A stretch of DNA of 64,000 nt from Gammaproteobacteria bacterium (GTDB lineage Bacteria > Pseudomonadota > Gammaproteobacteria > Xanthomonadales > Marinicellaceae), in contig JAWLAO010000009.1 of NCBI GenBank assembly GCA_041395445.1, forward strand, positions 6,150 through 70,149. Direction: 5' to 3'. Position 1 is the stretch's first letter, and every line of letters starts with the position of its first letter. Shown piece by piece: positions 59,376 to 63,647 of the stretch. The notes below the pieces were generated by a model, which made no database searches, was not told the origin of the DNA, and was given only the letters and a program-made list of their open reading frames with translations. A program made the translations under genes and the position numbers.

Positions 59376-59522
59376 AGTTGAATTGACTTATTTTTACGTT
59401 TCGTTACCTTTTAGAGAGCCTAAGTAATACAATTCAATCGGAAAAAAATAATTTTTTTAATTTTTTGAGATTGATTTTGTTCAATGGCACTCTCTAAGTG
59501 TTAAGTAAATGTTAAATGTGAA

Positions 59523-60146
59523 GTGAATACACTGGATGATTTAGAACTGGCAAAAGCCATAATGAAAGGAGATGAAAAGGTTTTTAATCATTTTTTTAAT
59601 GATTATTATCCCAAGTTGTTTCGTTTTATTATGAGTCGGATTGATTCTGACAACGATTTAGCAGACGATTTAACCCAACAAACTTTGTGTCAGGCAATTG
59701 ATAAGATGCATACGTTTGAAGGCAGAGCCAGTTTGTTTACATGGATGTGTCAAATCAGCAGAAGTTTAATTTCTGCTCACTTCAAGAAACAACAACGAAG
59801 AAGCCGTGTAGTCATTCCGATAACCGACACGGAGGAATTTAGAGACGTTCTGGATAATATTGCCATGAGTGAAGAGAGCCAACCGGAAAATTTAACTGAA
59901 AATCAGGAACTCAACCTGATAATCACAGAAATTCTGGATCGTTTACCGAATAATTACGGAAACATCCTGGAATGGAAATATGTGGAAAATATGTCAGTTG
60001 ATGAAATTGCCGAGCAACTCAACACCACCATGATATCCGTTCAGTCTTCTCTGGCAAGGGCAAGAAAGGCTTTTCAGCAAGTGATGAACCAAATTTTACA
60101 AAACGACAAATTACCTAAATCCCTGTTACAATTAAGGGAGAGTTGA
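59523..60146 (+). CDS. ECF-type RNA polymerase sigma factor
   Basis: GTG start. Region 2 (FNDYYPKLFRFIMSRI ... DDLTQQT) and region 4 (MSVDEIAEQLNTTMISVQSSLARARKAF). Confidence 0.9.
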   Translation: MNTLDDLELAKAIMKGDEKVFNHFFNDYYPKLFRFIMSRIDSDNDLADDLTQQTLCQAIDKMHTFEGRASLFTWMCQISRSLISAHFKKQQRRSRVVIPITDTEEFRDVLDNIAMSEESQPENLTENQELNLIITEILDRLPNNYGNILEWKYVENMSVDEIAEQLNTTMISVQSSLARARKAFQQVMNQILQNDKLPKSLLQLRES

Positions 60147-60147
60147 T

Positions 60148-61128
60148 ATGAAAGAAAGCAAAGACAAAGACATTTTTGAAGTATTAGCCAATCACGGCAA
60201 ACGAGCTCAGCCCAATGCGGAAATGATGGAAAAAGCCCGTGCCAATGTTAAGGCTCATTGGCAAAATTCGGTTAAACAAAATACAACACCAGACAAAACA
60301 AATTACAGAAAATATTTTAGCCTGGCGGCATCCGTTTTAGTTTTTGTGACGGTTGGTTTTTTCATCTCAAAAAACATCAACACAAATAAGGTTGATCATT
60401 TAATCGAATCATCATTGATTCGTGGCGAACTCATGGTTTCAACGGATAAAAACAACTGGACTTTGCTTGATAAAAACCAAAATATTGAGTCTGTCATCAA
60501 CAGCCACTGGATAAAAACCAATGAAGATAGTTTTGCATCAATTGTGTTCTCCAATCAAAGCGAATTACGCATTAATCAAAATACCATCTTAAAAGTTGAT
60601 GGTCTTGAAAACATTCAACTGGCATCTGGTGAAGTTTATTTCGATGCCGATAATGCCATCCAATCACGTATGAAAATTGACACAGACTTAGGGTCGGTCA
60701 CGCATATCGGTACACGTTATGCGGTTAAAGTCAAAAATAACGAATTACAGGTTGCCGTACGAAACGGAAAAGTGAATCTTGAACAAAACAACAACCAACA
60801 AACCATCAGCGGTGGGAATAAAATTCAACTGAGTTCATCAGGCGCTATCAGCAAAACCAGAATTCAAAAACACGATAACAGCTGGAATTGGACAACAAAA
60901 GCATCTCAACCTTTTAAAGGTCAAAACAAAACTCTGCATGATTATATCATCTGGTTTGCCCATGAAAACGGCTATGAAATTGACTGGAACAGCAAAGAAA
61001 GCGGAACAATGCTGGTTCGTTTATCCGGCGAATTACCCAAAATTGATCCTGTTAAACAAATTTCTGCAGTTTTCACATCAACCAAATATAATTATAAAAT
61101 TGATGAAGGTCTGCTAAGTATTTTCTAG
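60148..61128 (+). CDS. FecR-like transmembrane sigma regulator
   Basis: The start lies 1 nt after the sigma factor stop. Short cytoplasmic N-terminus, the TM helix FSLAASVLVFVTVGFFI, and a periplasmic FecR-type domain (ELRINQNTILKV ... GEVYFDAD ... THIGTRYAV). Confidence 0.85.
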   Translation: MKESKDKDIFEVLANHGKRAQPNAEMMEKARANVKAHWQNSVKQNTTPDKTNYRKYFSLAASVLVFVTVGFFISKNINTNKVDHLIESSLIRGELMVSTDKNNWTLLDKNQNIESVINSHWIKTNEDSFASIVFSNQSELRINQNTILKVDGLENIQLASGEVYFDADNAIQSRMKIDTDLGSVTHIGTRYAVKVKNNELQVAVRNGKVNLEQNNNQQTISGGNKIQLSSSGAISKTRIQKHDNSWNWTTKASQPFKGQNKTLHDYIIWFAHENGYEIDWNSKESGTMLVRLSGELPKIDPVKQISAVFTSTKYNYKIDEGLLSIF

Positions 61129-61181
61129 CGACTGGTGTAAAATCACCGTTTCTGGAAAACTTTGCAATACACAACCAATTC

Positions 61182-63647
61182 ATGAAGCAATTTTGCATTT
61201 GCCTGCTTTTTTTTACATCCAATCTATTTGCACAAAAGCTGACTTTGTCGGATTGGGTTGGTGTTTTTGCAAAGCAAAACATCAACATTCTCTATAGTAG
61301 TGATTTCATCGATGAAACTACATTGCAAAAGATTATCTTTCTGGAATCTGAAACTCCTGAGTCATTAGGTCAATCTTTATCCGAACTCCGTTTAAAACTG
61401 ATAAAAATTGATGATTCCAACTATGTTATTTCACATTCGGAGAATAATAATATTTCCAACAACGGCTTGATTGTCAAATTAAAAAACACCGAAAACCAAC
61501 AACCGATTGATTCATTCCGAGTATCCCATCAATCGCTGGACAGTGAAACCAACAATGGAACAGTTTTGCTAGATAACCTCAGTGGTTCACAAATCGAATT
61601 AACCCTTTCCGCCAAAGGATTTTATCCTTTAAGCCAAATGTTTGAAATTCCGCAAGGTTATAAAACCCTGAAATTATCGTTAGAACCATTACCTCTGAGT
61701 ATTGACAAAATTGTCGTCACTGCCAGCCAATATCGTTTATCCAATACCAAGCCCAGCCAGCATCGTATCAGCCGGGAAGAACTAGAAAACACACCATCGG
61801 TTTTTCACGATCCGTTGGCTTCAAGCAGTCAATTAGCCGGAAATACGGTCTTTGGAATTAGTGCCAAAAACAACACCCGAGGTGGCAATGAAAACGAATC
61901 CCTGATTGTTTTGGACAATCATATTCTTAGAAATCCGTATCATTTTGAAAATTTTTATGCGCTGTTTTCATCAATCAATCAAAGTATTGTCGATGACACC
62001 GAGTTTTACAGCGGGGTTTTTCCAACCCGCTACGGCGGTCGTCTGAGTTCCGTTATGAATATTTCCACCGGCGATACAACTTCAACCTACACACACGAAG
62101 TTGCCAGCGACTTGTTGAACACTCATTATACTTTCAAAAAAAACAACTCCGATTATTCCAAAGGTTTCCTGGCATCACTCAGAAATGGCGGAATGTTCAT
62201 CAGTGATAATTTGTTTGAAGATAAATTCACTCACCCGGAATCTCTGGACGGATATTTTAAAACCACGCAACAAATCAATGACAATTGGTCATCATCTCAG
62301 CATTTGCTGGTCAGCAGGGATGAATTCAACATTCGCGAGAGTGGCGAAGACAACTCACTGGAAGATGCTACTTCGGTATTTTCAGGTCAGGACTTCTGGA
62401 TGCAATGGAATTATGACAATCAGGAAAACTCTTATGCCAATTTCCAATTATTTGCTGCGAAAACCCATAAAAAAAGAGTAGGATTACTTAACAACGAAAA
62501 CACCATCGCATCCATCTCCGAAAATACCAACAGCAAGTATTTGGGATTGGATTATCAACAAACCATCAATCTCAACGATTCGTTTTCAGTCAACTTCGGA
62601 GCTCGTTTAACATCCGAAAATGCAGATATTAACTCTGAAAAAAACATCAACCATTTCGGCGAATTGCCACAACTCATTAACCTTGACAGACAATTTTCTT
62701 CCGAATTTGATTTTGACAAAGACGGTTTGTCCGGTTCGGTCTTTATCAACGCCCGACACAATTTCAACGAGCAATGGATTTATGATGTCGGAATTCGCTA
62801 TGAATATTTGCAATGGATTAAGCAAAAGCTCTACAGCCCACGATTCAATATCAGCTACTTCCATGACAAAGACACGACCTATAGATTTGCTTTAGGAAGA
62901 CATCAACAATCGCAATACATTGACGAACTTTTACTGGAAGACCCGAATCCCGATTATCTGGAACCCTCATCGGCTGATTTAATAGTTCTTGAGTTCAACA
63001 AAACTCTCAACAAGAATTTATCCCTGCGTGCAGAAGCCTATTACAAAAAATACTCTTCAACTCAGCCCTATTATCAAAACCTTTTCAATGGTTTGCATAT
63101 TCTTCCCGAGCTTTTTTATGACCGAATTCGTATTACACCTGATGACTCCTCCGCAACCGGTTTGGAAGTCACACTCAATGGAGGTTATGAAAAATATAAC
63201 TGGAATGTCAGTTACACCATTTCTGACTCAGATGATGAAATTGATGACAGAGTGATTCCCAAAAGCTGGGATCAGCATAGTGTTTTAAAGTTTAACTTAC
63301 ATACACCAATCAATTATAAATTCATTCAAAACTGGGCATTGGATATATTCGCAAGTCATGCCAGCGGACAAGCCACAACTTTAATCGAAGAGACCCCAAA
63401 TGGTTATGAAATCGCCCCCAGAAATGAATCCACTTACGAATCTAGCTTTAGATTAGATTTAAAAATCAGTAAACAGGTCAAAACCTCAAAAGGACTTATC
63501 AAATACTCATTCGATGCCATCAATGCTTTTGATTTGGATAACCTTTGCTGCACCGATTATCAACTCGATGATGGTGTTTTGACTTCCAAACAAAAAAATC
63601 TATTGCCGTTTATCCCGAATTTGAGTGTTTCTTATCAGTGGGAGTGA
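61182..63647 (+). CDS. TonB-dependent transducer-type receptor (N-terminal STN-like signalling domain, carboxypeptidase-regulatory-like domain, plug and barrel)
   Basis: Signal peptide, then LSDWVGVFAKQNINILYSS (STN-like), then GLIVKLKN ... GFYP, then the plug IDKIVVTASQYR, then a long barrel. Confidence 0.8.
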   Translation: MKQFCICLLFFTSNLFAQKLTLSDWVGVFAKQNINILYSSDFIDETTLQKIIFLESETPESLGQSLSELRLKLIKIDDSNYVISHSENNNISNNGLIVKLKNTENQQPIDSFRVSHQSLDSETNNGTVLLDNLSGSQIELTLSAKGFYPLSQMFEIPQGYKTLKLSLEPLPLSIDKIVVTASQYRLSNTKPSQHRISREELENTPSVFHDPLASSSQLAGNTVFGISAKNNTRGGNENESLIVLDNHILRNPYHFENFYALFSSINQSIVDDTEFYSGVFPTRYGGRLSSVMNISTGDTTSTYTHEVASDLLNTHYTFKKNNSDYSKGFLASLRNGGMFISDNLFEDKFTHPESLDGYFKTTQQINDNWSSSQHLLVSRDEFNIRESGEDNSLEDATSVFSGQDFWMQWNYDNQENSYANFQLFAAKTHKKRVGLLNNENTIASISENTNSKYLGLDYQQTINLNDSFSVNFGARLTSENADINSEKNINHFGELPQLINLDRQFSSEFDFDKDGLSGSVFINARHNFNEQWIYDVGIRYEYLQWIKQKLYSPRFNISYFHDKDTTYRFALGRHQQSQYIDELLLEDPNPDYLEPSSADLIVLEFNKTLNKNLSLRAEAYYKKYSSTQPYYQNLFNGLHILPELFYDRIRITPDDSSATGLEVTLNGGYEKYNWNVSYTISDSDDEIDDRVIPKSWDQHSVLKFNLHTPINYKFIQNWALDIFASHASGQATTLIEETPNGYEIAPRNESTYESSFRLDLKISKQVKTSKGLIKYSFDAINAFDLDNLCCTDYQLDDGVLTSKQKNLLPFIPNLSVSYQWE

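Follow-up and report, generated by a model that had tools for sequence, protein, structure and literature searches.

The DNA considered here is a 64,000-nucleotide (nt) stretch, hereafter the window, from a gammaproteobacterium of the family Marinicellaceae (GenBank assembly GCA_041395445.1, contig JAWLAO010000009.1, positions 6,150 to 70,149). Within it we focus on eight genes that form two divergent units. Three co-directional open reading frames (ORFs) on the plus strand encode a sigma factor of the extracytoplasmic function (ECF) type, a FecR-domain protein and a candidate TonB-dependent transducer; these are referred to as the trio. Opposite them lie five tightly packed genes on the minus strand, referred to as the cassette. 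A first interpretation of this DNA, which we call the sequence-only reading, had regarded the plus-strand genes as a cell-surface signalling set and had suggested that the cassette and the set together make up a self-contained system that produces and senses its own ligand. The genes are as follows.

55272-55910, minus strand: exported TPR protein, the last cassette gene (several weak Pfam TPR matches; Sec-type signal peptide ending in ANA, followed by E)
55929-56807, minus strand: short-chain dehydrogenase/reductase (SDR) (adh_short, E = 7e-46; PRK09072, 309 bits against a cut-off of 238)
56716-57390, minus strand: haem-oxygenase-like (diiron-type) redox enzyme (PF14518, E = 9e-31; PDB 3dde, E = 2e-16)
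57353-58720, minus strand: adenylate-forming acyl ligase (PF00501, E = 3e-30; AMP-binding_C_3)
58725-59375, minus strand: 'thermostable hemolysin' family protein, the first cassette gene (PF12261, E = 2e-46)
59523-60146, plus strand: ECF-type sigma factor of 207 amino acids with a GTG start (Sigma70_r2, r4_2, Sigma70_ECF)
60148-61128, plus strand: FecR-domain anti-sigma candidate of 326 amino acids (PF04773, E = 6e-15, residues 122-209)
61182-63647, plus strand: TonB-dependent transducer candidate of 821 amino acids (from predicted fold and family profile)
63754-63774, plus strand: terminator-like hairpin followed by a T tract, about 107 nt past the stop codon of the receptor gene (consensus scan only)

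The coordinates and spacing previously given for the sigma, FecR and receptor set all hold, including the single nucleotide between the sigma gene (stop at 60146) and the FecR-like gene (start at 60148). The hairpin is the likely end of the sigma-FecR-receptor transcript.

Conserved linkage and the divergent spacer

The sequence-only reading left it to other genomes to say whether the cassette and the trio belong together. They are adjacent and divergent in every flanked locus of the receptor lineage. Wherever the contig allows, the eight-gene unit has the same arrangement, in three genera (g1, g3 and g4), and it is also present in the genome records for Marinicella sediminis F2 and M. marina S1101. 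Among 40 relatives, the receptor gene and the PF12261 gene occur together in 10 of the 13 genomes of the same genus, and both are missing from the other three (G001, G004 and G013). The synteny persists down to about 28-35% identity in the FecR-like protein and the receptor, and the genes beyond the eight show no synteny in the relatives. A phylogenetic tree of the receptors places the cassette-linked copies in one clade (support 93/94); the trios of G016 and G014, which have no cassette, form the sister clade (support 98/97).

The spacer between the two units (59376-59522) is 147 bp long and AT-rich, as had been noted, with a G+C content of 26%. The 8-bp inverted repeat that had been picked out in it is also present, and its arms TTAGAGAG (59411-59418) and CTCTCTAA (59490-59497) are exact reverse complements. 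However, 34% of shuffled versions of the spacer hold an 8-nt inverted repeat, and 2.3% hold one with at least three G/C. Therefore, the repeat is unremarkable as a repeat, and its significance comes from conservation instead. Each arm is the -10-like box of one of two copies of a bipartite, promoter-like motif, GATTGAWT-N14/15-YTCTAA, which was obtained from an alignment of the spacers on both strands. The alignment gives, in order, an A/T-rich stretch, (C)GATTGAWT, 14-15 nt and YTCTAA, often with G as the next nucleotide. The spacer of the window contains the following elements.

59411-59439, minus strand: motif facing the cassette, GATTGAAT-N15-CTCTAA, with its 3' end 35 nt before the first cassette ATG; contains the left arm of the repeat
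59469-59497, plus strand: motif facing the sigma operon, GATTGATT-N15-CTCTAA, with its 3' end 25 nt before the sigma GTG; contains the right arm of the repeat
59500-59516, plus strand: direct repeat GTTAAG-N5-GTTAAA, immediately after the -10-like box on the sigma side; GTTAAACAATTGTTAAA in most relatives

The cassette-side motif has an equivalent in 12 relatives, and the sigma-side motif has one in all 15 of the relatives that have that flank. The pair is present in every locus with a complete spacer, with the exception that no match to the cassette-side pattern was obtained in L059 and L060. Each copy has a constant length of 28-29 nt. In most loci the first plausible start codon follows about 9-45 nt after the 3' end of the copy; the distance is greater in a few where the start is unclear. 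The two copies are as little as 6 nt apart in G008 and as much as about 270 nt apart in G012 and G005, and the sequence in between is unrelated from locus to locus. These observations favour a pair of independent promoter-type elements over a single palindromic operator.

In the 64-kb window there are exactly two matches, one per operon, where 0.02 would be expected and none of 100 shuffles gave two or more; since the pattern was derived from the same loci that were later counted, this enrichment is partly circular. Positions 7-8 of the motif (TT) were not imposed by the search; of 30 instances, 27 have T at the first of these positions and 29 at the second. In the whole 2.88-Mb genome the strict pattern has five matches, compared with one for a reversed control, and three of the five are 25-35 nt before the start of an ORF: the sigma gene, the first cassette gene and an eptA gene that is described below.

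The motif can be read as TGATT-N16-TCTAA, which has an ECF-like promoter geometry; a spacing of this kind is that of ECF promoters. A2 and T6 of the sigma-70 -10 box are missing from the motif, and a consensus scan of the spacer found no sigma-70 site. In the window the receptor gene has no third copy ahead of it and is therefore probably transcribed together with the sigma and FecR genes.

We infer that the sigma factor of the trio reads the motif. One could argue that a different protein does so, either another sigma factor or an activator that binds GATTGATT, and that the trio is an independent uptake-signalling system that shares the control region. About 14 genes of the sigma-70/ECF type score above cut-off in the genome. 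The short tandem repeat GATTGATT could itself bind a regulator, and a second conserved element is present on the sigma side. However, the strict motif tracks the trio and accompanies it in every genome that has one, including those of the sister clade, and both halves are absent together in the three same-genus genomes mentioned above. In G015 the -10-like box has changed on both sides together, to CATCCAAGGGG. In addition, the geometry, which is that of ECF promoters, stays the same despite a more than 40-fold variation in how far apart the copies lie. We consider a different reader to be very unlikely.

The sequence-only reading could not recognize a Fur box in the spacer, and we agree; the best match there is 12/19. 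As a positive control, two overlapping 17/19 matches are found in the window at 49580-49604, before an operon that encodes PepSY, DUF2271, DUF4198 and receptor proteins. This Fur-boxed iron operon was considered as a part of the unit and rejected because it is not syntenic with the locus in the relatives.

The three putative signalling proteins

The sigma factor matches PF04542, PF08281 and PF07638, which indicates that the region 2 and region 4 domains are present. It scores 87.9 bits against TIGR02937, the generic ECF superfamily model, which has a cut-off of 42.9 bits. Its top NCBIfam models are PRK11922, TIGR02985 and generic ECF models, and all of them except TIGR02937 are below cut-off. 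The second best, TIGR02985, represents an ECF subfamily of the Bacteroidota. No FecI model is among the best 25 NCBIfam matches, and the protein is not assigned to the FecI type.

The product of 60148-61128 comes from the sole FecR-domain gene in the whole genome. As read from its sequence, it has an N-terminus of about 55 amino acids, one hydrophobic span at about 55-75 and then the FecR domain. We predict a single-pass protein with its N-terminus in the cytoplasm and the FecR domain in the periplasm. The FecR domain contains HIGT, with a Gly-Thr pair, at a position that we take to be the region where FoxR-type regulators cleave themselves.

Comparison of the 821 amino acids of the receptor with Pfam (E up to 10), with NCBIfam and, by phmmer, with the sequences in PDB gave no useful match. 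An AlphaFold (AF2) model has a mean predicted local distance difference test score (pLDDT) of 82.7 and a predicted template modelling score (pTM) of 0.76, and Foldseek matches it to YddB, BtuB, FhuA, FoxA, FpvA, FecA and many others with E-values of about 1e-18 to 1e-20. Furthermore, a profile of the 29 sequences in the receptor family matches the solved TonB-linked receptor 9gbc (E = 2e-7). Within the family, the Plug model is matched in 19 of the 29 members, CarbopepD_reg_2 in 13 and the barrel model in four. The relatives of the receptor are Marinicellaceae proteins, some of which are annotated as TonB-dependent receptors; more distant matches are Bacteroidota receptors with PF13715 and PF07715, one of which also has PF07660.

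The order of parts in the model is a signal peptide, a small alpha/beta domain (about residues 19-85), an all-beta domain (about 95-167), the sequence DKIVVTA (175-181), a plug and a barrel. The all-beta domain reads as a CarboxypepD_reg-like domain and DKIVVTA as a TonB-box-like motif. Taken together, the predicted fold and the family point to a receptor with a plug, a 22-strand barrel and a TonB box.

The sequence-only reading had described a receptor with an STN-like signalling extension. The TonB-dependent transporter part of this description is borne out at the level of fold, and the STN part is weaker, because it comes from the fold without a sequence model. Neither the 29 family members nor a six-frame search of the genome at the receptor gene gave a match to PF07660 (STN). 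When modelled in isolation, the N-terminal domain has a pLDDT of 88, and STN and N0 domains dominate its Foldseek matches. The best of these are signalling domains, namely those of FoxA, PupB (in complex with PupR), PupA, FecA and FpvA, and N0 domains of secretins, all at weak E-values of 0.17-1.4 and template modelling (TM) scores of 0.5-0.6. A profile of this domain gave marginal and unrelated matches in PDB (E = 0.006 and worse), which we took as noise. The domain is probably STN-like, though this is not proven. We conclude from the models that the protein is a real, very divergent TonB-dependent transducer candidate with a Bacteroidota-style order of domains.

Some other features of the receptor can be mentioned. 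Two adjacent cysteines, C789 and C790, are invariant across the family. The protein ends in ...YQWE; the last residue is acidic and a near-invariant Trp is second to last. Outer-membrane barrels usually end in an aromatic residue. In G009 (L023 3001-5405) the receptor frame is split into two ORFs, which cover residues 8-456 and 465-821.

The cassette, its other regulators and further motif copies

We know of no product of the PF12261 'thermostable hemolysin' cassette, which is present in the four families that were checked, and a search found no literature directly relevant to this cassette or to surface signalling in Marinicella. Its chemistry is read here from family names alone. The PF12261 protein is presumably an acyltransferase-like enzyme; no sequence relative of it was found in PDB. 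The NCBIfam matches of the acyl ligase are to models resembling fatty-acid and o-succinylbenzoate CoA-ligases, all below cut-off. The haem-oxygenase-like enzyme is the most conserved cassette protein, with 68-79% identity within the family, and the 38-nt overlap between its gene and that of the ligase is real as called. As called, the SDR gene overlaps the gene upstream of it by 92 nt. Its relatives align only from residue 26-39, and therefore the true start is probably an internal ATG near 56723. The TPR protein is syntenic in all of the relatives (57-71% identity) and has a weak, sub-threshold match to the NCBIfam model of the sterol carrier BstC (E = 3e-10).

The same cassette is found under a different type of regulator. 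In three other families of the same order (G030, G031 and G033) the five genes are intact and in the same order, and they are followed by genes for a response regulator of the OmpR type and a histidine kinase with a 2CSK_N sensor domain and then, in G030 and G031, by a gene for an FTR1 iron permease. These two genomes also have perfect TTAAG-N6-TTAAG repeats upstream of the first cassette gene, and G033 has similar repeats with a different spacing. No receptor is linked to this two-component version of the cassette. Conversely, the eight-gene unit of the window contains no two-component genes, and the genome has no clear orthologue of the cassette-linked response regulator; the best match is 39-41% identical and is encoded elsewhere. 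The distant trio of G030 has no GATTGATT box, which is uninformative. The pattern points to a regulator swap, in which the Marinicellaceae trio would occupy the slot of an OmpR-type (PmrA/BqsR-like) two-component system.

The direct repeat at 59500-59516 resembles the TTAAG-N6-TTAAG repeats ahead of the cassette in G030 and G031, and there are only three such direct repeats in the 2.88-Mb genome. It looks like an OmpR-family-type site, in a position from which a regulator could gate the sigma promoter.

Besides the two copies in the spacer, the motif is found ahead of another envelope-related pair of genes.

G000 (this genome), contig C1:126250-128605: eptA-type phosphoethanolamine transferase gene and overlapping PAP2 phosphatase gene, with GATTGATT-N14-CTCTAA 26 nt upstream

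The motif is ahead of eptA in G012 too. The sister-clade trio of G016 has eptA-PAP2-DUF3500 genes as its own divergent partner, and the motif is present on both sides. The same -35-like box lies ahead of the sigma operon in G014. The link with eptA is not general; the motif is present before this gene in three of the eight genomes examined and is absent in G005, G007, G010 and G009.

A third copy of the motif, GATTGATT-N14-YTCTAA, is present in seven relatives, where it directly follows the receptor gene and precedes the gene for a multihaem cytochrome. The product of this gene is exported, has about 1045 amino acids and contains nine CxxCH sequences; it occurs in a subclade of the genus (L054 10280-13473 in G012, L050, L052, L059 and L061). 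This genome has no orthologue of the haem-binding part of the cytochrome.

Three side observations concern these neighbourhoods. In G014 (L024 9603-10259) an ORF of 218 amino acids lies between the GATTGATT box and the sigma gene and leads into the sigma operon; its product is a small haem-oxygenase-like protein with 22% identity to the cassette enzyme and no Pfam match. In the Marinicella genome G023 (L019 13693-14764) the region about 2 kb past the TPR gene contains a 100-amino acid remnant of the C-terminus of eptA together with a PAP2 gene that is intact, both convergent on the TPR gene. A decayed receptor fragment with six stop codons is present downstream of the cytochrome gene in G012 (L015 13568-14108).

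One explanation of the system is that its cue is a metal or an envelope stress, such as a ferric or other metal complex or a damaging agent, that is unrelated to the cassette product, and that the cassette lipid, EptA and PAP2 protect the outer membrane in the manner of PmrAB or BqsRS. It would account for the motif before eptA-PAP2 here and in G012, for eptA-PAP2 as the divergent partner of the G016 trio, and for the pairing of the cassette elsewhere with an OmpR-type two-component system, TTAAG-type repeats and an FTR1 gene. The weak resemblance of the exported TPR protein to a periplasmic lipid carrier also fits. Against this explanation, the eptA link is not universal, as just noted, the chemistry of the product is unproven, and the literature search that was made gave no precedent for control of eptA by a FecR-type or ECF system. 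We view it as a serious possibility, somewhat short of probable.

The other explanation is the one suggested by the sequence-only reading. The transducer would bind the exported product of the cassette, or a metal complex of this product, and the sigma factor would then raise both synthesis and the receptor. This explanation agrees with the wiring that we propose below and goes further by specifying the ligand. The linkage of the two units is invariable within the cassette-linked receptor clade, and the receptor operon is among the units with the shared motif, as in the feed-forward arrangement of siderophore systems. The receptor has kept a canonical plug and a TonB-box-like motif and so probably still imports something. 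A haem-oxygenase-like enzyme that N-oxygenates, combined with an N-acyltransferase and an acyl ligase, might in principle yield a chelator of the acyl-hydroxamate type. Iron-related genes also recur, namely FTR1 beside the two-component version and the multihaem cytochrome in the putative regulon of the relatives. However, the eight genes include no transporter besides the receptor, that is, no exporter, no periplasmic binding protein and no inner-membrane importer. The spacer has no Fur box, though one can be recognized elsewhere in the window, and eptA-PAP2, which appears to belong to the regulon, has no role in such a loop. The same cassette is under a two-component system without a linked receptor elsewhere in the order, and the sister-clade trios of G016 and G014 work without a cassette. 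Thus, we think that a loop of this kind is unlikely.

Proposed regulon and comparison with known systems

In our opinion, the trio is likely to be a surface-signalling regulatory module whose output is a biosynthetic and envelope regulon and not a nutrient-uptake operon. The TonB-dependent transducer in the outer membrane would bind an external ligand, and its STN-like N-terminal domain would relay the signal to the periplasmic part of the FecR-domain protein. The ECF sigma factor would then be released, and RNA polymerase with this sigma factor would initiate at the GATTGAWT-N14/15-YTCTAA promoters. The predicted targets are the sigma-FecR-receptor operon itself, which would amount to positive autoregulation, the divergent cassette and the eptA-PAP2 pair. 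The physiological output would probably be a remodelling of outer-membrane lipids. In view of the FecR-type architecture and of the genes for the cytochrome and FTR1, iron or another metal is a reasonable guess for the cue, and only a guess.

For the sequence-only reading, this means that its two parts fare differently. The regulatory coupling of the sigma set with the cassette is supported in silico by the linkage and by the motif shared by the two units. The self-contained, siderophore-like nature of the module is weakened by the missing Fur box and because the unit encodes no exporter, periplasmic binding protein or inner-membrane importer. A regulon for remodelling the envelope or its lipids fits better than a siderophore-like loop, because the motif copies include those before eptA-PAP2 and, in some relatives, the cytochrome gene and because the cassette is under receptor-less two-component control elsewhere.

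Several points weigh against the module as we describe it. The N-terminal domain of the receptor has no match to the STN model, and its fold matches have weak E-values. Likewise, no Pfam or NCBIfam anti-sigma model matches the short N-terminus (about 55 amino acids) of the FecR-like protein. Another of the sigma factors in the genome could read the motif, and the conserved direct repeat that follows the -10-like box on the sigma side suggests that there may be a further regulator. The enrichment of the motif is partly circular, and the motif is present before eptA in only some of the genomes examined. Finally, a loose version of the pattern is noisy and also matches conserved, unrelated sequence in genomes without the trio; we make no claim of trio specificity for it.

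The closest comparison is with FecI-FecR-FecA of E. coli and the Fox, Fiu and Fpv systems of Pseudomonas. They share with the trio an ECF sigma factor, a FecR-domain regulator that spans the membrane once and a TonB-dependent receptor, whose N-terminal domain in the trio is a probable signalling domain. Many Pseudomonas systems also have their genes in the order sigma, regulator, receptor. However, here there is no Fur box, no FecI model among the best matches of the sigma factor and no cognate ATP-binding cassette (ABC) importer. Furthermore, the receptor has an additional CarboxypepD_reg-like domain and escapes the STN, Plug and barrel hidden Markov models (HMMs), and the putative sigma promoter is found before the sigma gene and a biosynthetic operon instead of a transport operon.

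The pyoverdine system of P. aeruginosa (FpvA-FpvR-PvdS/FpvI) is also similar, in that a surface-signalling sigma factor governs genes for a metabolite together with its receptor; the corresponding arrangement here is predicted in silico. In the case of pyoverdine the ligand is the product, the system is gated by Fur, and it has export and import genes, whereas the Fur and transporter features were looked for here and not found. In PrhA-PrhR-PrhI of Ralstonia and VreA-VreR-VreI of P. aeruginosa the output of surface signalling is, as predicted for the trio, not the uptake of the sensed compound. These two differ from the trio in that their targets are type III secretion and virulence genes and VreA has no barrel; there is no relationship to them at the sequence level.

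Two other systems resemble the trio from different sides. The receptor, with its order of STN-like domain, CarboxypepD_reg-like domain, TonB box, plug and barrel, is like that of the SusC-like/anti-sigma/ECF trios of the Bacteroidota. Unlike those trios, this one has a gammaproteobacterial host, no SusD partner and no genes for glycan degradation, and its predicted targets are a lipid-type cassette and eptA-PAP2. On the target side, there is an apparent overlap with PmrAB/BasSR and BqsRS through eptA (pmrC/eptA), and in other families the cassette has genes for an OmpR-type regulator and a 2CSK_N kinase as neighbours. However, the regulator here is a sigma/anti-sigma/receptor trio, and so the system may work like a Pmr regulon without being a member of that family.

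A more speculative proposal can also be made. In the Marinicellaceae, a Bacteroidota-style surface-signalling system may have replaced a PmrAB/BqsRS-like system as the master regulator of a lipid-remodelling regulon. It would sense a specific extracellular ligand at the outer membrane, possibly a metal complex or the product of the regulon itself, and act through a new ECF promoter class, TGATT-N16-TCTAA. Lipid A modification and the production of an acyl lipid would in this way depend on an external signal. Its regulon would consist of the cassette, EptA, PAP2 and, in some species, a surface multihaem cytochrome. We offer this as a tentative proposal that we would not yet call probable. Surface signalling of this kind is already known. 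What appears to be new is a Bacteroidota-style transducer in gammaproteobacterial surface signalling, a newly defined promoter motif and an output of biosynthetic and lipid A-modifying genes.

In conclusion, a cassette without a known product is found here with a candidate dedicated sigma factor and a sharp promoter-like motif, which provide a handle to switch the operon on, and the occurrence of the unit in the genome records of M. sediminis F2 and M. marina S1101 suggests that such experiments may be feasible. If the proposed wiring is true, cell-surface signalling would control lipid A-modifying genes in these bacteria, one target operon would have been handed over from a two-component system to a sigma/anti-sigma/receptor system, and the catalogue of ECF sigma factors would gain a new promoter specificity.

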